Positions 18 to 64,000 of a stretch of DNA of 64,000 nucleotides are shown in pieces. Source of the stretch: an uncultured virus (IMG/VR IMGVR_UViG_3300029305_009146) (lineage: Duplodnaviria > Heunggongvirae > Uroviricota > Caudoviricetes). Position numbers and translations under genes: made by a program. The stretch lies in IMG/VR virus record IMGVR_UViG_3300029305_009146; one strand, given 5' to 3'. Under the pieces are notes generated by a model. That model saw only the letters and a list, made by a program, of their open reading frames with translations. It was not told where the DNA came from and searched no databases. Positions within the stretch are counted from its first letter, which is position 1. Each line of letters opens with the position of its first letter.

Positions 18-530
18 TTACCTCTCTTTCTCTAACAGTTCGGGATTGTCGAATACGTTGCCGATAACTTCACAATCAAAGAAATCTCCCCAATTTCCGC
101 AGCAATAAATTCCATAATCCTTTATTTTTACGCTCCATTCCGCGCTGTATTCACGGTATTTATCGTGCGTTTCTGTTTCCTCGTTGTAGAATCCACTGCC
201 TTTTCCGATGTCGTATTCTACAACTCCGATATGCCTTTTCGTCTTTCGGTTCTTCGCATACGGTTTATCCGAATACTCCTGCGTTCTAACAATATCATTC
301 TCCCAAATCTTCCGTCCGTTCTTGTCGGTAAGTCCGGTATCGTCACAAAGGGTTTCAATGTCAATTTCCACCTGTATCTGTTCAATCGGTGTACCCTTAC
401 TCAAATCAGCACCAATCGGGATGATGAAATGGTGTTCGTGCCGTTTATCATCATGCACCATGCAGAAATAAAACCCTTCCACCCATTCCTTGTTGTCCTT
501 TCGCTTTGCTTTGCAAATCTTACTTTTCAT
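18..530 (-). CDS. YopX-family protein
   Basis: KAKRKDNKEWVEG, TGLTDKNGRKIWENDIV, EVIGNVFDNPELLE motifs; SD before ATG 530; ends KER. Confidence 0.85.
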   Translation of the reverse strand: MKSKICKAKRKDNKEWVEGFYFCMVHDDKRHEHHFIIPIGADLSKGTPIEQIQVEIDIETLCDDTGLTDKNGRKIWENDIVRTQEYSDKPYAKNRKTKRHIGVVEYDIGKGSGFYNEETETHDKYREYSAEWSVKIKDYGIYCCGNWGDFFDCEVIGNVFDNPELLEKER

Positions 531-831
531 TCTGTTCTCCTTTCTCCGCAAGTGCGTCTTCGGCTTTTTCTTTGGCTGTGAACCATTCTTTTCCGTATTC
601 ATCCCACATCACACCCAAAAACATCATATCCGCTTCGTTCGCCTTTATTTGTCCGTTGGATTGTATAATATATACCGTATCTCCTACCTTGCATGGCAAC
701 CGCAGGAGAAGTCCTTGTTCCTCTGCCGTTTCATACTCCTTCAACTTCTTCTGAACCTCGATAATGTAGTCATTTTCCACATCCTCAACCTTCCCTTTGA
801 ATGTGTAAATATCGTCTACCAATCTCTCCAT
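520..831 (-). CDS. Hypothetical phage-type protein (paralog of 4924-5379)
   Basis: KLKEYETAEEQGLLLRLPCKVGDTVY motif; SD. Confidence 0.8.
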   Translation of the reverse strand: MERLVDDIYTFKGKVEDVENDYIIEVQKKLKEYETAEEQGLLLRLPCKVGDTVYIIQSNGQIKANEADMMFLGVMWDEYGKEWFTAKEKAEDALAEKGEQNEK

Positions 832-835
832 TCCG

Positions 836-1249
836 TCACTCTCCTATCTGAAAATCATTCATCACGATGTCGTTTCGTAGCTTGTGCCATCCGTACATAT
901 CATCCGGAGTCAACTGATTCTTCCATTCATCCCATTTAGACGGCACAAATACTGTCCATTCCTTTTCCGGGAGGGAAATACTGAGGTCATCCGGTGCCTT
1001 ATCATCCACATTAAGAGGCGGCTTCCACAGATTGATAAAGTAAATCTCATACAGATTCATGTCTGCTTCCGACTGGAACTCCGTGTACTCTATCTTTGTT
1101 ACATTGTGGATATTGATTGCCCGGTGCATCGGCTTCGCGAACATATGCCCTCTTATCCGTGCCTGCAATGGCTGTTTCGTTCTTCCGAGATATGCAAGGT
1201 GTTTTCCGTACCATATCCGATACAGTAAAAATCCTTTTGGACTAGACAT
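836..1249 (-). CDS. GIY-YIG nuclease-family protein
   Basis: LYRI..YLGRT..RIRGH..E.YFI..KPPLN pattern. Confidence 0.7.
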   Translation of the reverse strand: MSSPKGFLLYRIWYGKHLAYLGRTKQPLQARIRGHMFAKPMHRAINIHNVTKIEYTEFQSEADMNLYEIYFINLWKPPLNVDDKAPDDLSISLPEKEWTVFVPSKWDEWKNQLTPDDMYGWHKLRNDIVMNDFQIGE

Positions 1250-1296
1250 GTGTACCTCCTATTCATCAAACAGTTCTTTTGATGTGTTATATGGCG

Positions 1297-1419
1297 CTAA
1301 TATGTGCACCGCCACTGGCGATGGTTATCCCAATTAACCTTTTTAAGATATTTACAGCCTTTGCAGGAAAGATTCTTACGCTTTGACTTACCTTTCTTTC
1401 TCTTACACTTGAATCCCAT
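1297..1419 (-). CDS. 40-aa basic Cys-containing peptide
   Basis: Hand-translated MGFKCKRKKGKSKRKNLSCKGCKY...RCTY; AAGGAG SD; first gene after motif 1442. Confidence 0.6.
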   Translation of the reverse strand: MGFKCKRKKGKSKRKNLSCKGCKYLKKVNWDNHRQWRCTY

Positions 1420-1441
1420 GCAATCACTCCTTTTCTATGTA

Positions 1442-1453
1442 TGTTAAGGAAAA
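1442..1453 (-). promoter_or_regulatory. TTCC(C)TTAAC element motif (putative promoter)
   Basis: Repeat motif upstream of 1419. Confidence 0.7.
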
Positions 1454-1470
1454 TAATTAGACCAAAATAA

Positions 1471-1502: not shown

Positions 1503-2051
1503 CTAATCTCTTTCCCAACTTCTTATTTCGTTAATGGAGAACCCGTCAATCTCACAGGCTCCATTATCTGTGGGTTGATAATAGGCTCCTTCTTTCTCCG
1601 GGGAAATAAATTCCTGCGCGGCTAAGTTCGCAAGGGAGATAAGTAGAGCCGGGTTCCCGCTTTTCTTGTAGAGTTCTAAGGCGCAATCCATCATTCCAAG
1701 CGTAGTAAACTCCTCACAGGGAGTTGTCATAAACTCGCCTGTTTTTGGCACAGACGGATTCATAAACTCAATCATGGCAAAGTTGGCCACGTCTGCAAGA
1801 AATTCCGTATTACCGGTCTCTCTGTACTTATCCAGCCGCTTCTTCGCGGAACCAAGCGCATCAATGCACTTATACTTCCCGTAATTGTCCTTCAGGGGGC
1901 CGTACTTATAATAAGACACGACCATCATGTTCTTCCGGATGCGGTCAAACTCCATGGACTTATCTGAGCGCGGCATATTCTGATACCTGGCATCATCAAA
2001 TTTTTGTGAGTATTCTGTTAACAGAATCTTATCAAAATCTTTCTCCATCAC
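1503..2051 (-). CDS. Hypothetical protein with internal duplication
   Basis: ETGNTEFLADVANFAMIEF / KSGNPALLISLANLAAQEF repeats; ends ERD. Confidence 0.8.
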   Translation of the reverse strand: MMEKDFDKILLTEYSQKFDDARYQNMPRSDKSMEFDRIRKNMMVVSYYKYGPLKDNYGKYKCIDALGSAKKRLDKYRETGNTEFLADVANFAMIEFMNPSVPKTGEFMTTPCEEFTTLGMMDCALELYKKSGNPALLISLANLAAQEFISPEKEGAYYQPTDNGACEIDGFSINEIRSWERD

Positions 2052-3761: not shown

Positions 3762-3792
3762 AAAGGGCGGCATACTCATCCGCCCCTTTTTT
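3762..3792. terminator. Bidirectional terminator
   Basis: GGGCGG..CCGCCC hairpin flanked by A/T tracts between convergent genes. Confidence 0.75.
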
Positions 3793-4535
3793 TACTCTCT
3801 TTCTTCTTCAAGATTCTTCTCTAATTCTTTTTCTACAACAATAGAATATCCTTCTGTATAACAACCGTCTTTCTCTGAGAAAGCATACAAGCGCCATTCT
3901 CCGTTTAGATTATCGGGCGCGCCTTCCACTTCGTAAAAAGGGTCTCTGGTCAACGGAACTACCCCTCCGTCACGATGAAGGAAAAGGCTCAATTTTGGAT
4001 GTTCTTCATCTTTTTCTATATCAACCATATCTAAACTGATAGAAACCTTTTCGTCGCCGAAGTACGCGGAAACAGACCAAAGATTATTTTTGTAACCAAG
4101 GCCTCTCTTTTTTAATTCGCCTATGTTTAATTCTTTTAAAAAATCTATTGACCCAAGAATTGCTGACAAGGATTCACCGGCTACTTTAGTGCTGAGCGGA
4201 ACGCGGCAGAAAGGAATCTCTTCCTGGTTGCGCCGATAAAACACATTCATTCTACAAAGGTAGAGTGATTCGACTGCATCATTAAACGTGCTGGATTTTG
4301 CTGGCGGGAAAGCACTTACGTTACTCCAGTACCAGTCCGGGTTCTTTTTGGCAAGCTTTGTGTTGTTATACTTTCCGTGGATGAAGTTTATAAGCCTCTT
4401 CTCGTTCTGCAGGATAACCTTTCTTGCCCGGTGAAAACTCACGCGAGTAAATTCTTCCTCGGTGAAAATATAATTGGTCTCGCGACCGCTTTCTACAGAA
4501 ATAATTCCGATAAGCGGGTAATTAATCTCCTTCAT
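3792..4535 (-). CDS. Hypothetical protein
   Basis: ORF with SD; ends LEEERE. Confidence 0.8.
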   Translation of the reverse strand: MKEINYPLIGIISVESGRETNYIFTEEEFTRVSFHRARKVILQNEKRLINFIHGKYNNTKLAKKNPDWYWSNVSAFPPAKSSTFNDAVESLYLCRMNVFYRRNQEEIPFCRVPLSTKVAGESLSAILGSIDFLKELNIGELKKRGLGYKNNLWSVSAYFGDEKVSISLDMVDIEKDEEHPKLSLFLHRDGGVVPLTRDPFYEVEGAPDNLNGEWRLYAFSEKDGCYTEGYSIVVEKELEKNLEEERE

Positions 4536-4923: not shown

Positions 4924-5379
4924 TTAGCGTTCCTCCTGTCTGATGTTCTCTTGAAATAATGCCTCTGCTTTTTCTCGGGATAAAAAAGCAGTTTCTTCAA
5001 ACCGGTAAAAAGGGATGACCCAATTCCCTATAATTCCTATTCCTGCAGCCCTTGTAAATTCATCACATTTTACTGTGGCATAGCTTCCGTTTTTATCAAT
5101 TACAATGGATTGCACTTCTCCTTCGTAATATCCTTCCTCAATATGATTCGGCATAAAGGCATAGACGGTGTCGCCGGGTTTGCAGGGGGCAGAAACAAGC
5201 ATGGCCTTTTCTTCTGCCTTTTCTTTTTCATCCTCATATTCAGCGAGCTTTTCAAGCATCTTTCGAGCGTGTCCTGTTTGGATTTCGCAAGGCTCAAGAC
5301 TCATGTTATTGTTCTCATGGTCCACAAACCATATCATACCTTCCATGTTTTTGCCGCCACGTCTTGTTAATCGCTCCAT
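4924..5379 (-). CDS. Hypothetical protein (paralog of 520-831)
   Basis: MERLT..KLAEYED..PCKPGDTVY; ends QEER. Confidence 0.8.
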   Translation of the reverse strand: MERLTRRGGKNMEGMIWFVDHENNNMSLEPCEIQTGHARKMLEKLAEYEDEKEKAEEKAMLVSAPCKPGDTVYAFMPNHIEEGYYEGEVQSIVIDKNGSYATVKCDEFTRAAGIGIIGNWVIPFYRFEETAFLSREKAEALFQENIRQEER

Positions 5380-5942
5380 TACCGTTCTACCTCCTCTTCT
5401 TTGTCAGAAACGCGTTGTAAAAGAGACTCTTTCATTTCCTTCGCAATCACTTCTGCTCTTTCTTTTACTGCTTCTACACCATAATCAAACCAGGTATCTC
5501 TGTCACATCCATAACCGATACCGCTATCAAATCCAGAGTTAAGTAAGGCTTTTAAGAACTCATCGATTGTCTCTATGCGAGTACACACTATCCGAGGGTC
5601 TTCCGGAGGGCCTTCTGAAGCCTTTTCTTCTAAAAGGTTTTCTGTAGGTTTCTCGTCGGGAAGCTCCTCAGAGGCTTGCAAACCCTGCTCTTTTTTCACC
5701 GGAATACATGCAAGTTTAAACTCCTGGCCGGTTAAGTAGATATAACGATTGTCCTCTGTCAACAGCGTAAACAAAGTGTTTGCAGGACGGGAGCAAACAT
5801 CTCCATCCATTGCATAAACCACTCCATGTTTATGCCCGGCATCGGAACAGATATAATATTTTCCGTCTACACATTCTACACAACCGCCATGATGCAGTTT
5901 TGCGCCATCAAGTTTCTTCAGGTTAAGGGTGAAATATTCCAT
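5379..5942 (-). CDS. Hypothetical protein, tandem paralog 3
   Basis: TAATG coupling; ends EEEVER. Confidence 0.8.
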   Translation of the reverse strand: MEYFTLNLKKLDGAKLHHGGCVECVDGKYYICSDAGHKHGVVYAMDGDVCSRPANTLFTLLTEDNRYIYLTGQEFKLACIPVKKEQGLQASEELPDEKPTENLLEEKASEGPPEDPRIVCTRIETIDEFLKALLNSGFDSGIGYGCDRDTWFDYGVEAVKERAEVIAKEMKESLLQRVSDKEEEVER

Positions 5943-6619
5943 TATCTTTCCTCCTGCTCTTCTTCCAACTCCAGTTCTTGCTGTTTTACAAAAACCTCAT
6001 ACATATCGCCGTTATACTCAATCTCCCACTTATCGAAGTAGAAGCCTTGAAGCTCCGTTTGTGCGACCTTTTTAAGACCATCATAAAGGAATGCCTGACA
6101 CCAGCCGCTTTGATAGAGTCGTATCTCCATACAAAGACCGTTGGTGAAAGTTGCGGTGTTTCTTCGGAGAATTTTGTTCTGAGCGTGTTTGTTCTCCGGC
6201 AAATAAGCAATCCGGTCTTTTTCAATATCCCAAAACTCATCTTCGGAAAATTCTAAGGTGCTGCAAAACCATCTTCGATTGTCACGAGCCCCATTCTCTC
6301 TTACTGGCAGACACATAGCCTCATACTCTTCCAGTGAAAGAACAATGGGCTCCTTTTCTGAGAGTGTGGTAAGTTTTACATAATCTCCGGTATATGCGAT
6401 ACGGCAAACTTCTCCGCCTCTGGCATATGCTTTTCCTTTATCGGAAACAATATAATAGTCTTTGTTAAAGCGCTTTATTTTCCCCGCATGCGTAAGATAT
6501 ACCACACGGGCATTTTCTTTCCGGTGAGATTCATAATACATCCGTAAATCCAAGAGCACTGTGTCGCCCTTTTCCGGGTCTTTTATCGGAGCGGCGAAAA
6601 AATCTCTCGTCTCTTTCAT
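5942..6619 (-). CDS. Hypothetical protein, tandem paralog 2
   Basis: TAATG coupling; ends EEEQEER. Confidence 0.8.
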   Translation of the reverse strand: MKETRDFFAAPIKDPEKGDTVLLDLRMYYESHRKENARVVYLTHAGKIKRFNKDYYIVSDKGKAYARGGEVCRIAYTGDYVKLTTLSEKEPIVLSLEEYEAMCLPVRENGARDNRRWFCSTLEFSEDEFWDIEKDRIAYLPENKHAQNKILRRNTATFTNGLCMEIRLYQSGWCQAFLYDGLKKVAQTELQGFYFDKWEIEYNGDMYEVFVKQQELELEEEQEER

Positions 6620-8031: not shown

Positions 8032-8670
8032 TTACTCTCTCTCTTCTTCCCTATTTTTATCGCGGTATGTCTCAACCCCATTTAAAACCTCTCTAAGATT
8101 GGTTGGAGTCCCAATGAGTGCTTGAAATTCACGAAGCTCTTTTAACCGTTCGATTACCCGTTCGAGAGCACAACGGTTAGTACTTGAGAGTTCCTCCTTA
8201 TATTCAAACAATATATCTTCTACATCGAAGATGGCCCAGTTTGAAGTAAGACTCATGTTGAACTCCAAGGATTTGTCATAAAAGTCGCGTTCAAGAATAG
8301 AATCATATTCTTTCGATATAGGCGTTATGCTTTTTTTTAAATTCAAGAGTTCTTCTTCACTGGAGACCTGTGATATTTTCCTCTTAGCTTCGTAATAACG
8401 AGCGCTGGAAAACAGAGCAGCTCTTAAATGAACAATTTCATCGTGAGACAAACGTATATCCATAACACTTGGACCCTGAATAGAGAAATTTAACAGTTGC
8501 TTGTTTGAATATGCGTGTGTAAGGCCAAAGCATCGGTCTCCGACACGGCAACGGAAAGTTTCAGATATCATCCCGTTAAATACATCTCGATAAACATTGG
8601 TGCATTCGATGTCTTTAAAATCACTTGCTTCTGTTACAGTAATACGACTATTTTCTGTCCACGTAACCAT
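8032..8670 (-). CDS. Hypothetical protein
   Basis: SD; ends EEERE. Confidence 0.8.
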   Translation of the reverse strand: MVTWTENSRITVTEASDFKDIECTNVYRDVFNGMISETFRCRVGDRCFGLTHAYSNKQLLNFSIQGPSVMDIRLSHDEIVHLRAALFSSARYYEAKRKISQVSSEEELLNLKKSITPISKEYDSILERDFYDKSLEFNMSLTSNWAIFDVEDILFEYKEELSSTNRCALERVIERLKELREFQALIGTPTNLREVLNGVETYRDKNREEERE

Positions 8671-8680: not shown

Positions 8681-9244
8681 TTAATCTCTCTCGAAATCGT
8701 CCAAAGACATGTACAAGGTGTTGTCTCCGGCTTCCTTCTTAATTCTTTCCTCTGGCCAACTAGCCGGGTAAGAAGTCATAAAGGTTTGTCCGGTCTTTTT
8801 GTCCTCTTCCACGGAAATGGCACCATATCCCTGCTTCTGTTTCTTTTTAAATGTTTTCTCTACATCGTAGAGTTCAAGAAAATCCTCCACGATATACACA
8901 ATGGAGTTGCTTGCCATGGTGCGAATCGTGATATCCGCTTCCGGGATATACGGGTGATACTTCTTGAAACGCTCGCATTCTTCCTTATACTGTCCCGGGC
9001 GTTCTTTGTAGAGATTTTCAATGAACGGGTTCGGATGTTCCTTGGCGTAAGCAATGACAACCTTCATCATTTCTTCCTCTGCTTCCTTGGAAACGTAATC
9101 CACATCCTCCGGGCCGCCATCACCGTAATCTGCGTAAGTACCGATTTTCTTGCCGTTCAAATACATGGTGGCGGTACAACCATAGCCCTCTCGCCCAAGG
9201 GTGTTCTTAATATTTTTCATCTGAAAGCCTTTAATGCTTGCCAT
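8681..9244 (-). CDS. Hypothetical protein
   Basis: SD; DYGDGG motif; ends DDFERD. Confidence 0.8.
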   Translation of the reverse strand: MASIKGFQMKNIKNTLGREGYGCTATMYLNGKKIGTYADYGDGGPEDVDYVSKEAEEEMMKVVIAYAKEHPNPFIENLYKERPGQYKEECERFKKYHPYIPEADITIRTMASNSIVYIVEDFLELYDVEKTFKKKQKQGYGAISVEEDKKTGQTFMTSYPASWPEERIKKEAGDNTLYMSLDDFERD

Positions 9245-10534: not shown

Positions 10535-11128
10535 TTATCTCTCGTAATCGTCATCGAGGCGTGCGAATACGTTCTCGATTTCGTCATAGTGTACTCCGGT
10601 TTTCGTAAGTCTGTCTTTCTCCCACTCACAAATACCACCATTCTTATCAGCTACATAGAAACTTTCATCGGTATAAAATCCAACAACACAGCCTTTCATT
10701 GTCCGGTTGTGATAGTCCAACATGATTACTTCGTCACCGATTTTAAAATCCTTTGCTTCTTTCCCTTGCTCATAGGCTTCGATTTTGGCAAGGGCTTCTT
10801 CGACTGTGAATCCGTATGCAACCAAATGAAACCCACCCTTTCCAAATATATCTCTGCACTCATCACAGGACATTTTGGCAATCTTCTTCGCCAACTCCCA
10901 CGCATCCGCGAGTCCTTCTTCATAGGTCTTTTCAATGTAAGGCTCCAATGCGGTGGCCGGATAAAAATACACAGTTCCAGCTTCATCCGCAACGGTATAT
11001 GCAAACAGCGCTGTTGGGTTGACGTCTGTAACCGTGCCAACAACTCCACCCGGAGAAAATTGTGGGAATTGTGGCGAACCATCTATCCCTTTTACAGCGC
11101 GAACCTTGTCTCCTACTTTATACTTCAT
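10535..11128 (-). CDS. Hypothetical protein with two KVGDKV/KIGDEV beta-barrel-like units
   Basis: Motifs visible; ends DDDYER. Confidence 0.8.
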   Translation of the reverse strand: MKYKVGDKVRAVKGIDGSPQFPQFSPGGVVGTVTDVNPTALFAYTVADEAGTVYFYPATALEPYIEKTYEEGLADAWELAKKIAKMSCDECRDIFGKGGFHLVAYGFTVEEALAKIEAYEQGKEAKDFKIGDEVIMLDYHNRTMKGCVVGFYTDESFYVADKNGGICEWEKDRLTKTGVHYDEIENVFARLDDDYER

Positions 11129-13138: not shown

Positions 13139-13597
13139 CTACTCTCTTTCATCGTTACAAATCTCATCTCTGCCCTCACTCAGTCGGGGACCATGTCCTC
13201 CAAGCAGTTTGTCTACCATGTCGCTTAGCCGGTCTTCCGAGAGAGACAAAACGTCATCCTCATTTATTGGACTCCACTTTCGGTCGGCGTAGCTACGGAT
13301 ATCATCCGCAAACTCCGTAACAGCCTCCTCTCTTGCTTTTTTCCGGATATCCTCATCGTGCTTTTGAATCCATTCCTCGAATTTTTGTCCGTCATTCAAA
13401 AGAATTTCCGCCTTCCCATATCGAAGCAAAAACTCAAGCTCCTCCAGCAGCTCAATATCCCGCATTATTTTTTCGTCCTTCTTCGCAATCAAAGCATCCA
13501 ATTGGGACAGGCTACGATATCCGTCTCCTTCTTTTGCAAGGGAAAAGTCACATTGGAAAGATGAAATTGCGTGATTAAACTTATTGGTCGGCTCCAT
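13139..13597 (-). CDS. Hypothetical protein
   Basis: Start moved to MEPTNK; ends NDERE. Confidence 0.8.
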   Translation of the reverse strand: MEPTNKFNHAISSFQCDFSLAKEGDGYRSLSQLDALIAKKDEKIMRDIELLEELEFLLRYGKAEILLNDGQKFEEWIQKHDEDIRKKAREEAVTEFADDIRSYADRKWSPINEDDVLSLSEDRLSDMVDKLLGGHGPRLSEGRDEICNDERE

Positions 13598-18036: not shown

Positions 18037-18144
18037 AACATAACCTCCTTTGTCGGTTAAATTAATAATCTACAATGAATAGTGAACAATGGAGTTATCT
18101 TAATTATTCATTATTCCTTATTCGTTATTAATTCCTCTTATAGT

Positions 18145-18157: not shown

Positions 18158-18165
18158 ATTTTAAA

Positions 18166-50591: not shown

Positions 50592-51308
50592 TTATCGTTC
50601 ATTGTCTTCCCGCCGTGCTTGTTCGACTTCTATTTGCACACAGATATAGTTAAGTGCCTCGGCTTCGGCCTTTTCTTCTGTATCAAACGGTCCAAAACAA
50701 GTCAGTTCCATTTCCTGCGTCTGTTCAAAAATGCACTCTGCGAGAATTCCATTAATCTCTTCCTTCGGGTAAGATTCTTCAAAATCTTCCATTGACGGAT
50801 AATACCCGGTTATAACTGAGGACTTTTCTGCGTCGCTGTAATCATCAAGGTCAATGATTCCGCTTACATATATATAGCCATCCGGAAACTCTCTCACTTC
50901 AACCAGATGAAAAGTGGTTTCAGTTATCTGCTTTCTCCACTGAGTATCATCAGTGCGTACCCATTTGTTGTTTTGAGAGTTCATAACATTGCCCTCCTCT
51001 TTAAGCCGTCTTCCCATCTTATCCATATCAAGCTGCTCCTGCTTCAAAACGCCGAGCTCTTCTGCGTATTTGTCGATAACAGCATAAATAACGTCATTGC
51101 CAAGAAACCGCAAATCATCGCAGATTCCCTTTCCGTAACGAGTATGTCCGCCTCCGTCGCTCTGCATATCGTAAATTTCAGATGTGACATACTCACGGCA
51201 TTCTTCCCTTGTCATTTTCGGATATTCGTCCGGATAATCATACATGCCGTTGAGATACATATTTAAGACTTCCTCAACATTATACTGTAATTGCTTTTCT
51301 TTTTTCAT
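50592..51308 (-). CDS. Hypothetical protein (two-part)
   Basis: SD; ends EDNER. Confidence 0.8.
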   Translation of the reverse strand: MKKEKQLQYNVEEVLNMYLNGMYDYPDEYPKMTREECREYVTSEIYDMQSDGGGHTRYGKGICDDLRFLGNDVIYAVIDKYAEELGVLKQEQLDMDKMGRRLKEEGNVMNSQNNKWVRTDDTQWRKQITETTFHLVEVREFPDGYIYVSGIIDLDDYSDAEKSSVITGYYPSMEDFEESYPKEEINGILAECIFEQTQEMELTCFGPFDTEEKAEAEALNYICVQIEVEQARREDNER

Positions 51309-51409: not shown

Positions 51410-52006
51410 TCATCTTTCTATATCTTCATCGCCCAACAGAGTCTTTTGGAAGTCCGGCTCGTGCTGAACCTCCATAGGAACTACTCTGTAATACAAATGT
51501 CCGTCGCACTCTTCATCATAATCATCAAGGCTCTGGCGTTCTACCTCCAGTCGTTCCAGTTTCACCGCGATATCCTGTGCAGCATCCTCATTGTCATAAA
51601 CACCAACAATCTCTGTAGCATCCTTGGCAGGAGAATAATATCGTCCTTCCGAATAGTTGCTTTGGTCTGTGTCTTGAAGAACCAACCACACAGTTTTAGA
51701 CTCCGGGGCTTTTTCTTCAATCATTTTCTCCGTCTTATCAAGGAATTCGCTTTGCGTGATATCGCGATTCAGAATCTCCGAAGTAACAGCTTTCTTTTCT
51801 AGTGTCTCCATAATCTGCAGTATTTCATCCTGATACTCCTTCAATACTTTTGAAGTATAATATGGAGCGCCCAAATTGCTATTGATGCGGTCAAAGATTT
51901 CGGTTATTCTTTCTTTCGGAGAAATACCTGCATTTAGAGAAGCGCCTACATTTCCTGTAAAATCGCTATCTACACCAGCGGTATAATTTATTTTGATATC
52001 AGCCAT
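51410..52006 (-). CDS. Hypothetical protein
   Basis: Ends DEDIER before terminator. Confidence 0.8.
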   Translation of the reverse strand: MADIKINYTAGVDSDFTGNVGASLNAGISPKERITEIFDRINSNLGAPYYTSKVLKEYQDEILQIMETLEKKAVTSEILNRDITQSEFLDKTEKMIEEKAPESKTVWLVLQDTDQSNYSEGRYYSPAKDATEIVGVYDNEDAAQDIAVKLERLEVERQSLDDYDEECDGHLYYRVVPMEVQHEPDFQKTLLGDEDIER

Positions 52007-52008: not shown

Positions 52009-52395
52009 CTACCTCTCCTCTCTTTCTTCCTGTCTCTCTAAGAAAATCTCCTTTGCTTCTTCAAATGCTTTTCTCACACAATACCGGATGTCTTCTTTTT
52101 GTTCTCTAATGTTACCGAACCATCGCTTCCAGCCGCAATAGTCATGAAGTTCTCCATCTTTTACATCCCCGTAACCGGTGCATCTCGAAAAAGATGTTTT
52201 CCCGTAAAGGCGGGCCGTATTTCTGTTAATCGCATCCTCCAGAATGTTCTGGAACTCGTATGCCTCGTTTTCGGAAAGCCCCTTAATGCCAATATCAAGC
52301 CAAAGATAATTCCGGTCAAGTTCGCTTGGAACCTCTTTCCCCGTTACCGGGTCTATTTCTTTCATAGCAGCTTGCCAGTTGAGTGAAATCTTCAT
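52009..52395 (-). CDS. Hypothetical protein
   Basis: Start moved to MKISLN; ends EREER. Confidence 0.8.
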   Translation of the reverse strand: MKISLNWQAAMKEIDPVTGKEVPSELDRNYLWLDIGIKGLSENEAYEFQNILEDAINRNTARLYGKTSFSRCTGYGDVKDGELHDYCGWKRWFGNIREQKEDIRYCVRKAFEEAKEIFLERQEEREER

Positions 52396-52403: not shown

Positions 52404-52703
52404 CTACCTTTCCCATGGTTCGCGACATACCATTCTCTGCCCGAACAGGCTATAGCTATGCTGTGCCATCCACGCTTTTGCATCCTCTTCTGTGGTAAAT
52501 ACCGCCACGCTGTCTTCTTCTACATTTGTGTCGTAAAAGCCCCAGACCTGGTCGATATCATAAGTTTTGTCCTGATACAGATAATGGTCATCAAACACAT
52601 CTGTAACAACTCCTTTGCTGTAACCACACCCGTCTATGGGGTCACTGTAACAGGCAAATACTGACAATCCAGTCTTTATATTCTCTTTTGTCACAAGTGC
52701 CAT
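52404..52703 (-). CDS. Hypothetical protein
   Basis: Start moved to MALVTK; ends PWER. Confidence 0.75.
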   Translation of the reverse strand: MALVTKENIKTGLSVFACYSDPIDGCGYSKGVVTDVFDDHYLYQDKTYDIDQVWGFYDTNVEEDSVAVFTTEEDAKAWMAQHSYSLFGQRMVCREPWER

Positions 52704-53409: not shown

Positions 53410-53943
53410 TTATACCTCTCTTTCTTCGTCCCTTTCCATGAGAAGGAGCTCTCTCATACATCGGTTAAAATCATCTTGCTTTATACCGTAGAGCTTACGA
53501 GGCTCAAAATCCTTATCATCAAGAAGTTCCGTGGAGGTACCGTCCTCGTTAAGCAGAAATACCGGATATGGGAAGTTTCGGAACAACGCAAGAGCATTGT
53601 CAGCAAATGTGATATACATTCCGGATGTATTATAATCACGTTCTGCAAACGCATCCTGCTCAACACCCAGTATAAACTCCGGGAACGTTACCGCTTCGGC
53701 AAGATGGGATTCATAGTAGCTCAGCGACTGCAAAACAACTACCTTCTTGTTATTTCTTTCCCGAAACTCATAGCAGGTGTTCTCTTTAAATATGCTGTAA
53801 GACGCACCTAAAGCCGTCGGATTATCGTCGGTTATAGCATACCCATGCTCTTTTGCAAACAGAAGAAGCACTGCGGCCTCCAATCTGTTACGGCAATGGA
53901 CAACAGGGAACGTTTTAAAATCCGGGATAAACAGCTTTTCCAT
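53410..53943 (-). CDS. Hypothetical protein (paralog of 53946-54518)
   Basis: VVHC....EA..LL.FA.E.GY; ends DEEREV. Confidence 0.8.
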   Translation of the reverse strand: MEKLFIPDFKTFPVVHCRNRLEAAVLLLFAKEHGYAITDDNPTALGASYSIFKENTCYEFRERNNKKVVVLQSLSYYESHLAEAVTFPEFILGVEQDAFAERDYNTSGMYITFADNALALFRNFPYPVFLLNEDGTSTELLDDKDFEPRKLYGIKQDDFNRCMRELLLMERDEEREV

Positions 53944-53945: not shown

Positions 53946-54518
53946 TTATACCTCTCTTTCCTCATCGAGACTTTCAAATATTTGCTTTTGCAGAGAAGCA
54001 AAAAATTCATTATAGCTCAGCACGGGGGTTTCTTTACTTTTAAATGCCGCAAGCGGGCCAAAGGAAATAAACTTCCCTTCTTTTCCGTAAACATCAAGCT
54101 CATCACCAAATTTATAACAGGTCTGGTCTTCGTGGAAACCAAACTTAATACTCTGTAGCGGTTGTCCATGGTCAAGCCACAAATACCCCAGCTCTTCAGC
54201 AAAAGAAAGAAGTTCACGCGCTTCCTTCTCTGTCTTACAGTGTACTACGGTTCCGGGTGTGATTTCTCCAAAAAGAGCACTCTTTATTAGAGGGCTTGTC
54301 TTGGAGTTATTGGGAAAATACCGTTTAAGCTCCATAAGTTTCAATAGATTGTCGAGGTTGTCGGAGCCATTGGCTCGTATATCTTGAAAAACAGTATGAA
54401 GAAAACTGCTGTTCCCGTTTTTCCCAAGAGCTTTTCTAATTTCATTTTCGAGTAACTTTGTTCTAAAACTTAAAGCGGCAAGCTGGTAAAACTTACCCTC
54501 GGCTTCATCTCGTGTCAT
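53946..54518 (-). CDS. Hypothetical protein
   Basis: VVHCKTEKEARELL; ends DEEREV. Confidence 0.8.
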   Translation of the reverse strand: MTRDEAEGKFYQLAALSFRTKLLENEIRKALGKNGNSSFLHTVFQDIRANGSDNLDNLLKLMELKRYFPNNSKTSPLIKSALFGEITPGTVVHCKTEKEARELLSFAEELGYLWLDHGQPLQSIKFGFHEDQTCYKFGDELDVYGKEGKFISFGPLAAFKSKETPVLSYNEFFASLQKQIFESLDEEREV

Positions 54519-57109: not shown

Positions 57110-57436
57110 TTATCGTTCTACTGTGTCCTCTTTGTCATTTTCGGCCGTCTTTAACACGTTCTTTGCGACGTATTCTTCTGCAAACTTTTGAAACTCAGAA
57201 AAACCATCCTCAAAAACAGACCAGCCGGAACCCTTTTCTGCCTGATATTCAATCCAGCCGACATTAGCGTACGGGGCTTTGTCGTATGAAAAGTATTTTG
57301 TACCTTCCGGACTCCGCAGCGAACCGGAACCATCCTGATACATAACCCACCGCCAGTCGTCAGACAAGCGTTCTGCCCGTTTTATAAATGGCAACATATC
57401 AATAGCCATGTCAATATCGGTGTTCATGCTATTCAT
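57110..57436 (-). CDS. Hypothetical protein (paralog of 53129-53407)
   Basis: DGSGSLRSPEG; ends DTVER. Confidence 0.8.
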   Translation of the reverse strand: MNSMNTDIDMAIDMLPFIKRAERLSDDWRWVMYQDGSGSLRSPEGTKYFSYDKAPYANVGWIEYQAEKGSGWSVFEDGFSEFQKFAEEYVAKNVLKTAENDKEDTVER

Positions 57437-57449: not shown

Positions 57450-57821
57450 CTATTCTCGTTCCAATGTATCGCCCTTGTCTGTTGACAATCCGACAAGCAA
57501 TTTTTCGGTATCAGTCCATGTGATTTTGCCATATAATTCTTCGTGCTCGCTGATTACCAACGAAAAAACACCAAGTTTATCAAACACATAATCTTTCAAA
57601 ACAACGATTATTTCGCTTGTGGGGTCTGACTCATAGACAACGCCTCCGTCTTTTCCATGCTCCATCGCATAGATTACCTGAGATTCTTCAGATACCATAA
57701 TGTCCACGCAGACGTCATAATTTGGATGCTGTTCGAGCGCTACTGTATAAATCACACGCAGCTTTTCGCCCGCACAAGAATCGTCGTAAAAGTCGATAAT
57801 TTCATAGTTATCTTTCCGCAT
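57450..57821 (-). CDS. Hypothetical protein
   Basis: SD; ends TLERE. Confidence 0.8.
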   Translation of the reverse strand: MRKDNYEIIDFYDDSCAGEKLRVIYTVALEQHPNYDVCVDIMVSEESQVIYAMEHGKDGGVVYESDPTSEIIVVLKDYVFDKLGVFSLVISEHEELYGKITWTDTEKLLVGLSTDKGDTLERE

Positions 57822-60168: not shown

Positions 60169-60738
60169 TTATCTTTCTTCTTTTCTTTCTGCCTGACATT
60201 TGGCATACCGCTCTTCCTGCTCGTATTCGTTATCTATCGGTCTCCCGCATTCATCAAGGAATATCATACCGTAGGTAGCAATCTGTCCTTTCATAACGCT
60301 CCGGTCGTAATCGGTAAGGTTGCAATATGTCTCATAAGTCGGCGGGACCAGCATCTTTTCTTCCCATGCGTTAATGGTTTCTGCCATAAGCTCATAGAGT
60401 TCCGCCGTGGTGGACTTTTCCACATCTACAACATCATAATTAAGAAAATCGCCCTCTTTGGACAAGAAAAATTCAAACCAGTTGTTTGCATCAACATACA
60501 AACGGTCACCATATTCCGTTTCTAAAAGTCGGTCTTCTGCAATAATCCGTTTCAACTCTTCCGGAAAGTCGGCGGGGTTACGGTATGTTATCCCATCAAA
60601 GTCAATATTGACTTCTCCGCGGACCTCAACTGTTGCAACCGTGCCGTTTCCTACCTCAAGGGTTGCGATTGTAGTCCCGCTTGAGAGCTGCAGGCTATCT
60701 ACAATGTTCGTCATATCTACATGCTGTTCAAACTTCAT
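60169..60738 (-). CDS. Hypothetical protein
   Basis: ATGA coupling; ends RKEER. Confidence 0.8.
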   Translation of the reverse strand: MKFEQHVDMTNIVDSLQLSSGTTIATLEVGNGTVATVEVRGEVNIDFDGITYRNPADFPEELKRIIAEDRLLETEYGDRLYVDANNWFEFFLSKEGDFLNYDVVDVEKSTTAELYELMAETINAWEEKMLVPPTYETYCNLTDYDRSVMKGQIATYGMIFLDECGRPIDNEYEQEERYAKCQAERKEER

Positions 60739-61580
60739 CGTTCTGTTTCCTCCTTATCTTTAGAAAAGTCCTTATAGTGAAATATTCGTGCAAGCTCATC
60801 CCAGAGCGAGCCGTCGGTCACATAAATATCTCCGGTATCGTCTACCCATTTTCCCCGCCAGCAGGTAGAAATGGTGACGAGATTATTATAATCTTCATCC
60901 ACTTCCCTATGGTAACTGCTGTCTTTTGTGATATGGAGGTCGAGTTCTCCGTAACAACCAAAGTTGCGGACATCAAGCCTTTCTCCGGCGTCAAGGTTGC
61001 TGCAAAGTCTTATTATTTCACTGAGTTGAACGTCCATAGGTTCTTTTTCGCTGTAATTATAGTAGGCTTCCTTTGGAATATCTTTACCGAGAAAGCTATA
61101 CAAATCTCGAATTACCACAGGAGCTCGCTGAAGGTACACTGTGTGTCCGGTTTCGGGATTGGTCAATTTATATTTGTGTTTGTCAAATTCTTCCGAAACG
61201 GTCAGTCCGAGTTTTTCACAGGTCACAAAGAAATCTGCGACTTCCTTCTTTGCCTGATTCACATTTAATACCGAACAGGTGACATTTTCCGTAAATTCAG
61301 CATCAGCCGCATATAAAACAACCTGTACCACCTCTGATTCCAAAATTTCAAGTAATGATGAGTCGTGAAATTGTTGCGGAATTTTAATCGTATACTCATC
61401 GGCAGAAGTCTGCCACTCACCAAGAAGAGAGTCTTCGACCTCTCCGCTGTCAATAAGCATTTGACCGTGCGCCAGCGCCAACTTTTCCGACAAATAAAAC
61501 GCAAGCGGCTCAACTGAAATAATCCCGTTTGACACAAAAGGCCGGTAAAGATGTACTTTTGTTGTCTTATCGTTCATCAT
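60735..61580 (-). CDS. Hypothetical protein
   Basis: Start moved to MMNDKT; ends EETER. Confidence 0.8.
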   Translation of the reverse strand: MMNDKTTKVHLYRPFVSNGIISVEPLAFYLSEKLALAHGQMLIDSGEVEDSLLGEWQTSADEYTIKIPQQFHDSSLLEILESEVVQVVLYAADAEFTENVTCSVLNVNQAKKEVADFFVTCEKLGLTVSEEFDKHKYKLTNPETGHTVYLQRAPVVIRDLYSFLGKDIPKEAYYNYSEKEPMDVQLSEIIRLCSNLDAGERLDVRNFGCYGELDLHITKDSSYHREVDEDYNNLVTISTCWRGKWVDDTGDIYVTDGSLWDELARIFHYKDFSKDKEETER

Positions 61581-62406
61581 GTTCTTCCTCCTTCTCCTGC
61601 AGATAATCGTCAAAGTTATAGCATTCATCTACGCCGATGCTCCAAGTATCACTCCGGTCATCGTTATACACGGAGGAAGAAATAATTCTTACTTTCTCCT
61701 TCCCGCCCACAAGACCGTCTACAAACAATTCAAACGGAATGCCACCGCGCATAGCCGCATCACACCATTCCCCGATTGTGTCCCGGGGAGCGTCCGTACA
61801 CAAAAGCACCCAGTCAAAGCCCTCTCCTTCAATAAGAACTTTGCGGGCCTTTTGAGCCTTATATTTGTTCATTTCCTTCACGTAATCACATTCGAGAAAC
61901 TCCTGCAGCTCTTCCATGGTCATGAGCTCTGCGTTTTCTCTGATTTCTGACAGGTTGTCATAGAGGATATCGAGCTGGTCGTGATTCATGTCTTTCCAGT
62001 CCGAGGCATCCCAGTTCATGTACATTTCACAGTCCATGATTTTTTCAATTTCCCCATCGGTAAAAGCATATTTAATTTGTCCCTCCGGCGAAACATCAAT
62101 AAAGAGCTTACCGTGATTGTTACTCGGAGACCAGAATACATAGTCCTCGAAATCCTGACTATAGTCCACTTCCCTATGTTCTTTTATCAAGTCAGAGCTG
62201 ATAACAATATCCTTCATATCAAAATTGACATCAAGAATCCGATTAAGCTTTGGAATATCGATGTACTTGTTATCTCTCAACCACTCTATTGTCCATCGGC
62301 AGCGGCTTATCATGCGCTCTGCATAACACCAACCGTTATCTCTGGCCGCAAGGTGAATATTATTACCATTATTTACCCTTACATAAAGTTGGCTTCTCTC
62401 GCTCAT
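61567..62406 (-). CDS. Hypothetical protein
   Basis: Start moved to MSERSQ; ends EHDER. Confidence 0.8.
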   Translation of the reverse strand: MSERSQLYVRVNNGNNIHLAARDNGWCYAERMISRCRWTIEWLRDNKYIDIPKLNRILDVNFDMKDIVISSDLIKEHREVDYSQDFEDYVFWSPSNNHGKLFIDVSPEGQIKYAFTDGEIEKIMDCEMYMNWDASDWKDMNHDQLDILYDNLSEIRENAELMTMEELQEFLECDYVKEMNKYKAQKARKVLIEGEGFDWVLLCTDAPRDTIGEWCDAAMRGGIPFELFVDGLVGGKEKVRIISSSVYNDDRSDTWSIGVDECYNFDDYLQEKEEEHDER

Positions 62407-62498
62407 AAACATTCTCCTTTCAAATATAGGAATCACTATATTTGTTAAGGGAAAAATATTGAAATAAAGAAAAGAACCATGCTTTTACACATGGTTCT
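62402..62498. repeat. Direct repeat copy 1 (start-SD-motif-terminator module)
   Basis: ctcataaacattctcctttca ... tgttaagggaaaaa ... aaagaaccatgcttttacaca shared with 63648-63736. Confidence 0.85.
62443..62455 (-). promoter_or_regulatory. TTCC(C)TTAAC element motif
   Basis: Upstream of 62406. Confidence 0.7.
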
Positions 62499-62517
62499 TA
62501 GCAAAGCTTTAATATTG

Positions 62518-63237
62518 TCAGAACAAAGGGAACGTGTCCGGCAAATCATGTTTTAAAATTCCGGCATAGAGAACCTTTTCTTTTTTGAAATATCCCCAAA
62601 ACTTCGTTCCGTAATCATAATGCCACCATTCGGACGGGAGATTGGTGAACCCCGCAGAAAGCATTGCGTTATAAAGCAATCTACGGTTATCTCTCACCTC
62701 TTCGCATTCATCAAACACCTCAAAATGATTTGACCACGCTCTGTTTGTAAAATCATCAAACAGGGTTCCCATGTTTAACGCATAGCCAGAATCCGTTATG
62801 ATTGTTAAATCTACTGCGCCACCAGTATTATGCAGGGACGGGTGAGTTATATCATAACTAGGCTTACTTACAAAAAATGATGTTAACTTATCCAGCTCTT
62901 CATCGTCTACTGCCGGATGGTCCGCCTTTACCTGCGCCCTGTAGTATTTCCAGAGTCGCTCCTGTACCTCTACCGGACGATACGCATCGTAGATTTTGAA
63001 CCTGAACCCTTTTGGTAATGAATCTTGTGCTATTTTTAATCGTTCAACTACTCCGACACGAGCATAACAATCTTTGAGTGCTCCGGCAATTCCCATTTTG
63101 TAATACTGGGATTCGCATACAAAGCCCGCTTGTGATAGTGATACGAGCGGCTCTTCAACACCTTTTACCTCATAACTGTGAATAGATGGAAACTCCACTG
63201 TTGGTATCGAGGTAGTTAAATCAATGTTATTACTCAT
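62518..63237 (-). CDS. D-Ala-D-Ala dipeptidase (peptidase M15D, VanX/DdpX-like)
   Basis: YDAYRP, SLHNTGGAVDLT, MGT.FDDF, EWWHY motifs. Confidence 0.9.
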   Translation of the reverse strand: MSNNIDLTTSIPTVEFPSIHSYEVKGVEEPLVSLSQAGFVCESQYYKMGIAGALKDCYARVGVVERLKIAQDSLPKGFRFKIYDAYRPVEVQERLWKYYRAQVKADHPAVDDEELDKLTSFFVSKPSYDITHPSLHNTGGAVDLTIITDSGYALNMGTLFDDFTNRAWSNHFEVFDECEEVRDNRRLLYNAMLSAGFTNLPSEWWHYDYGTKFWGYFKKEKVLYAGILKHDLPDTFPLF

Positions 63238-63256
63238 AATAACCTCTCCTTACTTT

Positions 63257-63652
63257 TTATTTTTCTAAAAAATCTTGTTCTTTTGTGTCAATCTCGCTAA
63301 TGACGCCTTGTAAAGACTGAAGTTTACGTTCCATTTCCTTTTGGATTTCCCGCAATCTATCTGCCAGAAGCTCCTTTGCAAGCTCTGCGTTTGGTGAATC
63401 AAAAACAACACAAAAACATTCGTTGTCTCCAAAAACACGTCCAAAGTGTTCTTTTGTTATTGTACATCCTTGAAAGCCCGGCAAGTTCCGTGAACTTTCT
63501 GTTAACCGATATTTCCCGTCTTTCAAATACATATTGTGAACTTCCTCTATATAGCGAAGCTTTTCCGGTTCTTTAGTTTGAGCGTCTTTTGTATAACCAT
63601 AAAAATACAACTTTTTTATATTATCTTCATACATCCATGAATAGTCCCTCAT
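63257..63652 (-). CDS. Hypothetical protein
   Basis: SD; C-terminal coiled coil. Confidence 0.8.
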   Translation of the reverse strand: MRDYSWMYEDNIKKLYFYGYTKDAQTKEPEKLRYIEEVHNMYLKDGKYRLTESSRNLPGFQGCTITKEHFGRVFGDNECFCVVFDSPNAELAKELLADRLREIQKEMERKLQSLQGVISEIDTKEQDFLEK

Positions 63653-63736
63653 AAACATTCTCCTTTCAGATATGGCGCCTTTCTATTGTTAAGGGAAAAA
63701 ATAAAAAAAGAACCATGCTTTTACACACGGCTCTTT
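63648..63736. repeat. Direct repeat copy 2
   Basis: See 62402-62498. Confidence 0.85.
63687..63699 (-). promoter_or_regulatory. TTCC(C)TTAAC element motif
   Basis: Upstream of 63652. Confidence 0.7.
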
Positions 63737-63739
63737 ATA

Positions 63740-64000
63740 TTATCGTTCCACGTCATTTTGTTCCCTGCGTTTCGCCTGCAATGTGGATAAAATATTATCC
63801 AAGTTATCAGAATTAAGTACATCTTTGTACTCTTCTTCAAAATCAACAAGCAGCTCCTTGGCTTCTTTTTCGCCTCTCATTATTTCTAAAAAGTAAGCTT
63901 GTAAATCCTCAAGAGCTGTCGCTTTTTCAATAAACTCTATCGCTTCCTTTGAAATGCAATCCCAAGAACCATACAGATTAATCGTGGCTTCTTTTATTTT
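63740..64000 (-). CDS. 3' part of a gene starting beyond the window
   Basis: Hand-translated end ...QAKRREQNDVER* followed by terminator. Confidence 0.7.
   Translation of the reverse strand, partial: KIKEATINLYGSWDCISKEAIEFIEKATALEDLQAYFLEIMRGEKEAKELLVDFEEEYKDVLNSDNLDNILSTLQAKRREQNDVER

Follow-up and report, generated by a model that had tools for sequence, protein, structure and literature searches.

About half of the proteins encoded in a 64,000-nucleotide stretch of the uncultured virus IMG/VR IMGVR_UViG_3300029305_009146 (Caudoviricetes; the whole of this stretch is called the window below) end in the same short peptide, Glu-Arg (ER), preceded by an acidic run and sometimes followed by one or two more residues. 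This ending is confirmed as a real, lineage-specific C-terminal motif, with a frequency that chance comes nowhere near explaining. There is nothing unusual in its origin, which is the in-frame reading of a ribosome site, but its extent, its spelling, and its gain on otherwise conserved proteins are out of the ordinary. The explanation that we favor, tentatively and at a little short of an even chance, is that a tail of translational origin has been kept in this lineage as a handle that would bear on the fate of the finished proteins.

The window has 40–44% G+C with strong strand asymmetry, and its minus strand carries nearly all the coding. Two gene calls were used. The greedy one, which takes the longest open reading frames (ORFs), gives 127 minus-strand ORFs covering 91% of the window; the other, refined by start codon, Shine-Dalgarno (SD) sequence, and coding potential, gives 129 genes, of which the 119 confident ones, all on the minus strand, form the set used below. 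The greedy call has 41 ER ends among its 127 proteins, together with 16 ends in which one residue follows the ER (10 ERE, 5 ERD, and 1 ERC) and 3 in which two follow (EREV twice and EREE once). The corresponding numbers for the 119 confident genes are 44, 18, and 3, so that the tail is carried by some 55% of the window proteins. Both calls agree with the hand count of a preliminary description of the window, made from the letters alone, which gave about 45 ER, about 17 ERE or ERD, and 3 EREE or EREV ends in about 128 genes. From the frequency of the dipeptide inside the proteins (0.59%), one would expect 0.75 ER ends in the greedy call (binomial P about 1e-58). Of the 170 ER dipeptides in the proteins of the refined call, 44 are terminal. 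Arginine holds the last position in 52 of 119 proteins (8.8-fold over a background of 5.0%), and lysine in 9 (1.0-fold, no enrichment). In the greedy call, 52 of the 127 proteins have Arg at −1 and 51 have Glu at −2; the residue at −3 is Ile, Val, Met, Phe, or Glu, with mostly acidic residues at −4 and −5. The motif is best written [D/E]-hydrophobic-E-R, optionally followed by one or two residues that are usually acidic.

The proteins that carry the tail are otherwise unrelated, as the preliminary description had stated. BLASTP comparisons among the 129 window proteins give only 8 pairs at E ≤ 1e-3, which also rules out a paralogous family with a common C-terminal domain, and no feature common to the N-termini of the tail-bearing proteins was found when one was looked for. 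The same description held that membrane proteins and most recognizable enzymes lack the tail, and the counts bear this out. None of the seven proteins with a predicted transmembrane segment has it (Fisher P 0.003; one of the seven is a soluble ATPase), and it is found on 3 of 14 proteins with a Pfam or PHROG name against 62 of the 105 others (P 0.01). Pfam and PHROG scans, made on 114 window proteins and limited to the window, name YopX, a YpsA/YoqJ protein of the SLOG group, DUF5983, a C5 DNA methylase, a radical SAM protein, a PAPS-reductase-like protein, MmcB-like and HNH-like proteins, an esterase, an M15 peptidase, a CPBP (Rce1-like) membrane protease, a SEC-C-motif protein, and an AAA+ ATPase. 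Most of the recognizable enzymes and membrane proteins, including the C5 methylase, the radical SAM protein, the CPBP protease, the ClpX-like ATPase, and the HNH-like protein, lie in one module. ER genes are dense at 32–64 kb and at 0–16 kb, and sparse at about 17.8–31.5 kb:

17803..31458, minus strand, ER-poor module with 2 exact ER ends (21804 and 17463) in about 29 genes, from 31458 down to 17463

The CPBP/Rce1-like intramembrane protease of this module (30652–31458) has weak, sub-cut-off matches to the VPEID-CTERM, JDVT-CTERM, Synerg-CTERM, and myxosortase proteases, and belongs to another family of enzymes that process C-termini. Since the ER tails come without a membrane segment, no link is seen between them and this protease.

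The shape of the motif follows from gene packing. The ending [I/V/L]-E-R-stop is the in-frame reading of UAGAAAGG with an embedded stop codon, and UAGAAAGG is an SD variant complementary to the extreme 3′ end of 16S rRNA. With a preceding UA, GAAAGG is the full complement of the 16S 3′ end of Firmicutes, which may not be that of the host. The upstream stop is thereby placed inside the ribosome site of the next gene, a compact arrangement, and its trace is visible in the codons. An xTA codon precedes the ER (position −3) in 13 of 44 ER genes but in only 7 of 103 internal ER dipeptides, the share of xTA among all codons being 4.9%, and Ile at −3 is spelled ATA in 8 of 10 cases against 24% elsewhere. 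Thus, the shape of the motif has been written by the ribosome site of the next gene, and these data demonstrate a translational origin for the ending.

The ends can be sorted by what the terminal codons do in the RNA. In class S the ER hexamer is itself the SD of the next gene; in class D there is a separate GGAGG at or right after the stop; in class U the SD lies upstream in the acidic run, and ER is the spacer or overlaps the next start; and in class T there is no called start within 30 nucleotides. The exact ER ends are the following.

63740..63748, minus strand, class T, GAACGA TAA, hairpin next
61567..61575, minus strand, class U, GAACGA TAA
60735..60743, minus strand, class U, GAACGA TGA (ATGA overlap)
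60169..60177, minus strand, class T, GAAAGA TAA
59740..59748, minus strand, class D, GAACGA TAA, separate AGGAGG right after the stop
57110..57118, minus strand, class D, GAACGA TAA
54530..54538, minus strand, class D, GAACGA TAA
53129..53137, minus strand, class D, GAAAGA TAG
52404..52412, minus strand, class S, GAAAGG TAG
52009..52017, minus strand, class S, GAGAGG TAG
51410..51418, minus strand, class T, GAAAGA TGA, terminator 51406–51380
50592..50600, minus strand, class D, GAACGA TAA
48822..48830, minus strand, class D, GAAAGA TAA
47689..47697, minus strand, class D, GAAAGA TAA
47415..47423, minus strand, class U, GAAAGA TGA
46531..46539, minus strand, class U, GAGCGC TAA (TAATG overlap)
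46253..46261, minus strand, class U, GAGCGA TAG
45997..46005, minus strand, class D, GAACGA TAG
45292..45300, minus strand, class U, GAGCGC TAA
45111..45119, minus strand, class S, GAAAGG TAG
44527..44535, minus strand, class S, GAAAGG TAG
44180..44188, minus strand, class S, GAAAGG TAG
43584..43592, minus strand, class T, GAGAGG TAA, end of the YoqJ/YpsA-like gene, within the 5′ arm of terminator 43597–43562
42741..42749, minus strand, class S, GAGAGA TAA
40891..40899, minus strand, class U, GAACGA TGA
39713..39721, minus strand, class S, GAGAGA TGA
39039..39047, minus strand, class D, GAACGA TAA
35717..35725, minus strand, class S, GAAAGG TAG
35256..35264, minus strand, scored T, GAAAGA TAA, GGAGG and ATG next (an uncalled short ORF would make it class D)
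34115..34123, minus strand, class S, GAGAGG TGA
32509..32517, minus strand, class D, GAAAGA TAG
21804..21812, minus strand, scored T, GAGCGG TAA, ATG directly after the stop
17463..17471, minus strand, class S, GAAAGG TAG
16554..16562, minus strand, class T, GAAAGG TAA, terminator 16543–16514, tail in place of the family's usual ...I-x-Y/F end
14804..14812, minus strand, class U, GAACGA TGA
14418..14426, minus strand, class U, GAGCGA TGA
10535..10543, minus strand, class D, GAGAGA TAA
9755..9763, minus strand, class S, GAGAGA TAA
6619..6627, minus strand, class U, GAAAGA TAA (TAATG overlap)
5942..5950, minus strand, class U, GAAAGA TAA (TAATG overlap)
5379..5387, minus strand, class U, GAACGG TAA (TAATG overlap)
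4924..4932, minus strand, class U, GAACGC TAA
2134..2142, minus strand, class T, GAAAGA TAA, terminator 2127–2104
18..26, minus strand, scored T (no called neighbor), GAGAGG TAA, end of a YopX-family gene at the window edge, ATG 8 nucleotides downstream

The ends with one or two residues after the Arg are these.

57450..57461, minus strand, ERE, refined gene call
53946..53960, minus strand, EREV, GAGAGGT is the next SD
53410..53424, minus strand, EREV, refined gene call
49804..49815, minus strand, ERD, refined gene call
49427..49438, minus strand, ERE, terminator 49419–49395
47015..47026, minus strand, ERD, refined gene call
41577..41588, minus strand, ERE, refined gene call
38511..38522, minus strand, ERD, GGAGG right after the stop
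37875..37886, minus strand, ERE, hairpin next
36533..36544, minus strand, ERE, whole gene missing from contigs of two runs
32273..32284, minus strand, ERD, refined gene call
31575..31586, minus strand, ERE, terminator 31567–31542
28882..28893, minus strand, ERE, next called start 106 nucleotides downstream, terminator-like by the fold test
28419..28430, minus strand, ERE, hairpin next
24375..24386, minus strand, ERC, 9-residue extension (ending YERC) relative to the homolog in the related phage record G001
13885..13899, minus strand, EREE, end of the DUF5983 protein, refined gene call
13139..13150, minus strand, ERE, refined gene call
8681..8692, minus strand, ERD, ends FERD, homolog in the related phage record G002 (57% identity) ends ...FDFVK
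8032..8043, minus strand, ERE, refined gene call
3792..3803, minus strand, ERE, hairpin next
1503..1514, minus strand, ERD, terminator 1499–1470

The ER hexamer serves as the SD in 11 of the 44 exact ends; in the other 33 the ribosome site is elsewhere or no gene follows (11 D, 13 U, and 9 T). The spelling of the terminal Arg tracks this role in the RNA while the residues stay constant. It is AGG in 8 and AGA in 3 of the 11 class S ends; CGA in 6 and AGA in 5 of the 11 class D ends; CGA in 6, CGC in 3, CGG in 1, and AGA in 3 of the 13 class U ends; and AGA in 4, AGG in 3, CGA in 1, and CGG in 1 of the 9 class T ends. Hence, AGG is used in 8 of 11 class S ends and in none of the 24 D and U ends (P 7e-6), and an end with its ribosome site elsewhere takes another Arg spelling, most often CGA. 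In class T, three of the nine assignments are doubtful (35256 and 21804, with a possible short ORF after them, and 18, at the window edge); the other six are clearly without a following start, and four of these are followed by a strong terminator. The acidic residue at −4 (55–73%) and the hydrophobic one at −3 (46–64%) are found in all four classes. These observations establish that in this lineage the ending has come loose from its ribosome-site role.

Codon choice does not simply follow likeness to an SD. Among the 41 ER ends of the greedy call, the Arg codons are AGA 14, CGA 12, AGG 10, CGC 3, and CGG 2, with CGT absent, and CGN spellings are therefore present. The Glu codons (28 GAA to 13 GAG) are like internal usage (62% to 38%), and the stop codons (24 TAA, 10 TAG, and 7 TGA) are in the proportions of non-ER genes. 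An A precedes the stop in 63% of ER genes and in 50% of the others. The string GARMGR followed by a stop occurs 41 times in frame, 4 times in one other frame, and never in the second.

Position in the operon matters as well. Genes that overlap or abut the next one end in ER in 17 of 31 cases (55%), those close to it in 18 of 46 (39%), and those with no start within 30 nucleotides in 8 of 41 (20%; P 0.005 for coupled versus far genes). One explanation of this gradient is that a nascent Glu-Arg would be released quickly or cleanly, which would clear the stop at the next start and aid coupled translation. This would depend on the amino acids and not on the codons, as is observed, and the proportionate use of the three stop codons is also consistent with it. 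However, ER, ERE, and ERD ends are also found before terminators: among 20 strong terminator-like sites on the gene strand between positions 1 and 60,000, the gene just upstream ends in ER in 4 cases and in ERE or ERD in 3. Published release rates are nearly uniform except for Pro and Gly, the translation machinery of the host would press related phages equally, yet these lack the motif, and neither the preferences at −3 and −4 nor the ERx variants are accounted for. We consider an effect on release very improbable.

The ends before terminators had been used in the preliminary description to argue that the tail is not merely the SD of the next gene. In our scans, a terminator-like site comes immediately after the stop in five of its ten operon-terminal examples (2134, 16554, 31575, 49427, and 51410), and another four (3792, 28419, 37875, and 63740) are followed by a hairpin that is rich in G+C and has a T run. 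The tenth, 28882, is less clear, as the fold test flags a hairpin with a T run but none lies in the 30 bases after the stop. Its six quoted spellings (at 2134, 4924, 5379, 14418, 16554, and 21804) are all correct. The argument holds for the 33 ends that are not ribosome sites; the SD share was nonetheless underrated, since it takes in 11 of 44 ends here and nearly all of those in the relatives. One further terminator-like hairpin, at 43562–43597, has 15 pairs, and its 5′ arm includes the last codons and the stop of the YoqJ-like gene. A ribosome finishing this gene would open it, so translation may modulate read-through into the next operon.

The opposite conclusion, that the tails have no peptide function, can also be drawn from packing. 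Under this explanation they are by-products and relics: ORFs would have been extended to a stop in or beside the next ribosome site, through purine-rich sequence that reads as acidic residues and then E-R; neighbors would later have been swapped, deleted, or replaced by terminators, and the old ends would have stayed, with only the SD-like spelling selected away. The motif is indeed the reading of UAGAAAGG plus a stop, the ER rate falls with distance to the next gene, and class T ends are mostly spelled AGR (7 of 9). The rarity of the tail on proteins of widespread families is what one would expect if these were recent arrivals. One gene is missing, start codon to start codon, in contigs of two runs, so neighbors do change at junctions.

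Constraint on the peptide was tested with terminal hexamers one base away from the core GARAGR, for which there are about 15 possible non-synonymous changes to each synonymous one. Counting over all 119 genes, we find 15 variants that are synonymous, every one of them through a C at the first Arg base, and 9 that are not (EK 3, DR 3, and GR, QR, and ES once each). The related loci described below show 2 and 40, respectively (P 4.6e-7 for the difference). The conservative ends EK and DR, with 3 each, are five times rarer than the respelled CGR ends. A change to C at the first Arg base removes a competing SD and may itself be favored, which qualifies the test. The spacers tell a similar story, as those of free ribosome sites in the window are T-rich, whereas class U spacers spell ER. 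Both the synonymous excess and the spacers speak against relics.

A different proposal is that a junction cassette made of the last codons, stop, ribosome site, and start was spread by gene conversion during the shuffling of gene cassettes. Two unrelated junctions, at 52404 and 44527, are identical over 20 bases that include the ER hexamer, the stop, and the spacer up to the next ATG, and cassette-level differences between relatives fall at gene junctions. But the spacers and ribosome sites of classes D and U all differ while ER is constant, the Glu and Arg codons vary, and the identity of the stop is independent of ER. Such spreading is barely credible as the source of the motif. As to the shuffling itself, contigs of two runs (X7 and X8) join 36518 to 36918 and so lack exactly the gene 36533–36919, from its start codon to the next start codon, and other contig joints skip 1.8–5.4 kb between gene junctions. 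These sequences suggest that recombination between ribosome-site/start regions adds and removes gene cassettes.

The relatives of the element allow the history of the tail to be examined. Near-identity searches with 20-kb pieces give no match in phage or plasmid collections, and a related-locus search with three window proteins finds no relative among viral contigs; among genome contigs its sole match is 40 residues in a Cytobacillus scaffold. For two tail-bearing proteins without a family, the homologs are one distant protein, ending ...DDR, and an identical fragment. The closest relatives that could be fetched are five uncultured viral records of 155–290 kb, classified in IMG/VR as having direct terminal repeats (three), as linear (one), and as a provirus (one); four of the five are 100% complete according to CheckV, and one, G002, has seven proteins in common with the window. 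About half of the sampled words of a 10-kb piece of the window are found in six feces-metagenome runs. The window has no tRNA genes and no Rfam families. As its relatives are large, mostly complete viral records and its words match feces runs, a large phage or prophage with a gut Firmicute as host is the most likely identity of the element.

The motif is scarce among these relatives. ER ends number 1 of 246 and 0 of 418 in two complete related phage records, 0 of 45 in a Cytobacillus prophage-like locus, and 1 among the 71 annotated genes of the comparable region of SPbeta. A wider set of 62 related metagenome loci (24–67% G+C), found through the YoqJ-like protein, has ER as its commonest ending, at 40 of 1,153 unique ORFs (3.5%), which is 10.5-fold over expectation. 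There, however, it is spelled mostly GAAAGG or GAGAGG (AGG in 27 of 39 unique ends) and stands nearly always as GARAGG-stop-N(2–8)-ATG, so that nearly all the ER ends of these gut elements are explained, on their sequences, by the ribosome site. This fits the view of tails as relics. Yet relatives of like architecture have 0–3.5% ER ends against 37% in the window, and an ancestor with enough class S ends to have left so many is therefore not plausible. In viral contigs, the 14-base ER-stop-SD string is found in at least 118 stretches, with one contig having two among the matches listed. Eleven of the related loci are low-G+C gut elements (24–32%; L139, L142, L144, L145, L148, L149, L151, L162, L163, L165, and L187) that share small genes with the window, namely homologs of genes 18, 520, 16554, 23421, and 47015; they have the class S form of ER, and acidic C-terminal tails also on non-ER proteins.

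Homologs of conserved window proteins were compared for gain or loss of the tail, as the preliminary description had proposed. The YoqJ-like protein of the window extends ten residues (to ...SRVER) beyond the ...GQWL end of its 62%-identical homolog in G001. Only 4 of 120 YoqJ homologs end in ER, the two closest (91% and 74% identity) among them, and the tails of these two differ in length and sequence, although both end in ER, which again is difficult to reconcile with relics. In the AlphaFold model (mean predicted local distance difference test score, pLDDT, 89), residues 191–197 fall below pLDDT 50, and the tail thus sits on an appendage predicted to be unstructured. The family of gene 16554 usually ends in ...I-x-Tyr/Phe, with 60 of 132 full-length homologs ending in Tyr or Phe, and an ER end is found in 2 of the 150 homologs listed; the window copy ends in ...ELEQDDRER, with a terminator next. 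Extensions ending in YER, IER, or YERD also occur in other lineages of this family, a point in favor of relics. The sequences indicate that ER-type extensions were acquired in this lineage, and among the proteins compared only there, by the YoqJ-like protein and by two further conserved proteins.

Weighing both sides, we judge the relic explanation unlikely, though it has to be taken seriously. The respelling of Arg, the synonymous excess, and the extensions on conserved proteins argue for selection on the peptide, as the preliminary description had supposed from the codons; that is, the extent, the spelling, and the gain on conserved proteins all point, at the level of sequence, to such selection. 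We therefore return to the explanation of a tail kept for the protein. As a first step, the stop of an upstream gene would have come to sit in the SD variant of the next, giving an E-R ending as a by-product; the ending would then have been detached from the ribosome site, with the Arg respelled and the residues kept; and it may finally have been retained for its effect on the fate of the finished protein. It could act as a common charged C-terminal handle for a machine that reads C-termini, either to spare a protein or to engage it. The best reader would be an AAA+ protease system made of the ClpX-like unfoldase of the element, with its lysine-rich pore loops, and the ClpP of the host; the C-terminal proteolysis of the host itself might serve instead.

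The best candidate for a reader, from its sequence, is the following gene.

20347..21678, minus strand, divergent ClpX-like AAA+ ATPase, without an ER tail, candidate reader

The protein aligns with solved ClpX over the AAA+ module and retains Walker A, Walker B, and the IGF loop. Its pore-1 loop is GFKG where ClpX has GYVG (Val replaced by Lys), TKKKGN stands at the position of the RKH loop, and there are four Cys in 20 residues at the N-terminus. It scores 89.6 bits against the NCBIfam ClpX model, whose cut-off is 359, and by sequence is a divergent relative of ClpX and not an equivalog. Lysine-rich pore loops would suit acidic tails, a lead that comes from one genome.

Several points weigh against this explanation. 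The homolog in G002 (locus L205) has canonical GYVG, RKH, and IGF motifs, without the N-terminal domain, and G002 has no ER tails; four of the five related records have no ClpX-like gene at all. The joint occurrence of tail and variant ATPase is therefore known from a single genome. A strict requirement for the extreme C-terminus fails, as 18 ERx and 3 ERxx ends accompany the 44 ER ends, and these 21 genes exclude a reader that depends on the free carboxylate of the Arg. The higher rate of ER ends at overlapping or abutting genes points to a translational component, and the ribosome site alone explains a quarter of the ER ends and the very shape of the motif. The synonymous excess (15 to 9) presupposes that CGN ends descend from AGR ends, and the relatives that provide its control (2 to 40) are lower in G+C, which disfavors A-to-C changes. 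Finally, a general bias at bacterial C-termini, taken up below, favors Lys at least as much as Arg; this is not seen in the window, so the known effect is not the whole story.

A more ambitious version makes the tail a private address code of this phage lineage, a ribosome-site by-product recruited so that a dedicated reader, with the element's own ClpX-like unfoldase as prime suspect, would act on about half of the soluble proteins. The phage would then have its own channel for the unfolding or timed destruction of early proteins, apart from host quality control. We regard this version as unlikely.

The preliminary description had proposed a sorting signal for one receptor, which could be a conjugative coupling protein, a virion packaging or ejection system, or the ClpX-like ATPase. 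The one-receptor idea has little support, and of the three only the ATPase gained a lead, through its pore loops. For the first two, small acidic proteins would be brought to a coupling protein or type IV secretion system (T4SS), or loaded into the virion and later ejected into the next host. The Glu-rich Dot/Icm signals resemble the tail in its acidic block and hydrophobic −3 residue, the tolerance of position (ERx and ERxx) is like that of composition-type secretion signals, and membrane proteins lack the tail. But the supporting genes are missing from the window: there is no relaxase, coupling protein, or T4SS or other secretion gene, and no capsid, portal, or terminase, among the 114 window proteins scanned with Pfam and PHROG. 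The related records are complete phages with terminal repeats, tailed jumbo phages and not conjugative elements. To our knowledge, a cargo of some 65 different proteins from 64 kb would also far exceed that of any virion or T4SS. Export or loading is thus quite improbable.

If the tail is read by the phage unfoldase or another receptor, it would give a handle on about 65 proteins of unassigned function at once, a portable tag of two to five residues with which to control what becomes of proteins in gut Firmicutes, and a documented case in which the by-product of a translation signal was recruited as a protein signal. Even under the dullest reading it calls for caution in annotation, as a conspicuous "motif" at protein ends (3.5% of ORFs in related elements) can result from how ribosome sites are placed.

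Some other features of the window deserve mention. A plus-strand gene at 3475–3756 encodes a protein of 93 amino acids without a family and has a perfect (12 of 12) sigma-70-like promoter at 3420–3448, back to back with a minus-strand promoter at 3408–3380 (11 of 12). It shares a two-way hairpin with the convergent gene 3792, and the region 3380–3790 may be a small regulatory switch. Inside the gene at 44527–45102, contigs pile up at 44683–44735, with summed depths of 17, 4.7, 4.5, and 10 in four runs against about 1–5 nearby, and many contigs have loose ends at 44684–44720. Many different contigs have this segment in common, which makes it a repeat or else a module boundary that is widely conserved. 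The terminator-like hairpins at 49395–49419, 52755–52778, and 31542–31567 score on both strands, with an A run, a stem, and a T run, although the genes are read in a single direction.

Many unrelated proteins have their fate decided by short C-terminal tags, which are familiar from organelles, secretion systems, and proteases; we know of none that marks half of the proteome of a bacterial virus. PTS1 (-SKL) and KDEL are strict address tags at the last residues, with known receptors. Like them, the ER tail is a very short C-terminal motif on unrelated proteins of one class, here soluble and not membrane proteins; unlike them, it has ERx and ERxx variants and belongs to a bacterial virus. The Dot/Icm E-block is a Glu-rich C-terminal signal with a hydrophobic residue at −3 or −4, and the VirB/D4 signals are Arg-rich. 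The tail resembles these in its acidic block and near-end hydrophobic residue on many unrelated small proteins, in a loose position; it differs in that the window has no T4SS or coupling protein, the relatives are tailed phages, and a fixed Glu-Arg is not part of those signals. The ssrA degron (...LAA-COOH) is read by ClpX, whose positive RKH loops attract the negative charge of the tag. The ER tail is likewise a short C-terminal tag on unrelated proteins, and the element encodes a ClpX-family unfoldase with an IGF loop, a likeness at the level of genes; it is, however, charged where ssrA is non-polar, allows one or two additional residues, and is found on half of the proteome.

Two published phenomena are also pertinent. 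Huber et al. 2019 (PMC6728339) deal with translational coupling, in which stop codons are embedded in the next ribosome site or overlap it. Class S (GARAGG-stop-N5–8-ATG) and the ATGA and TAATG overlaps of the window are of this kind, whereas in 33 of 44 cases the ER end is not the ribosome site, and in 9 there is no called start within 30 nucleotides. Searches of a limited literature collection, on common C-terminal tags of phage proteins and on C-terminal bias from downstream ribosome sites, found no paper with this motif. The nearest published parallel comes from Weber et al. 2020 (PMC7246954), who report that the last position of bacterial proteins is enriched in Lys (2.32-fold) and Arg (1.76-fold), that only CGA, AGA, and AGG are enriched among the Arg codons, with NNA preferred before stops, and that charged residues at −1 and −2 raise protein levels, largely through slower degradation, with hydrophobic ends disfavored. 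The terminal Arg codons of the window agree with this, being CGA, AGA, or AGG in 36 of 41 cases. The window differs in that Arg is enriched 8.8-fold and Lys is not enriched, and one dipeptide makes up 37% of the ends, in a single phage lineage. The codon pattern thus fits the general bias, which does not account for so large an effect, for the exclusion of Lys, or for a Glu that is fixed, and a specific reading of the C-terminus that sets protein fate is therefore favored.

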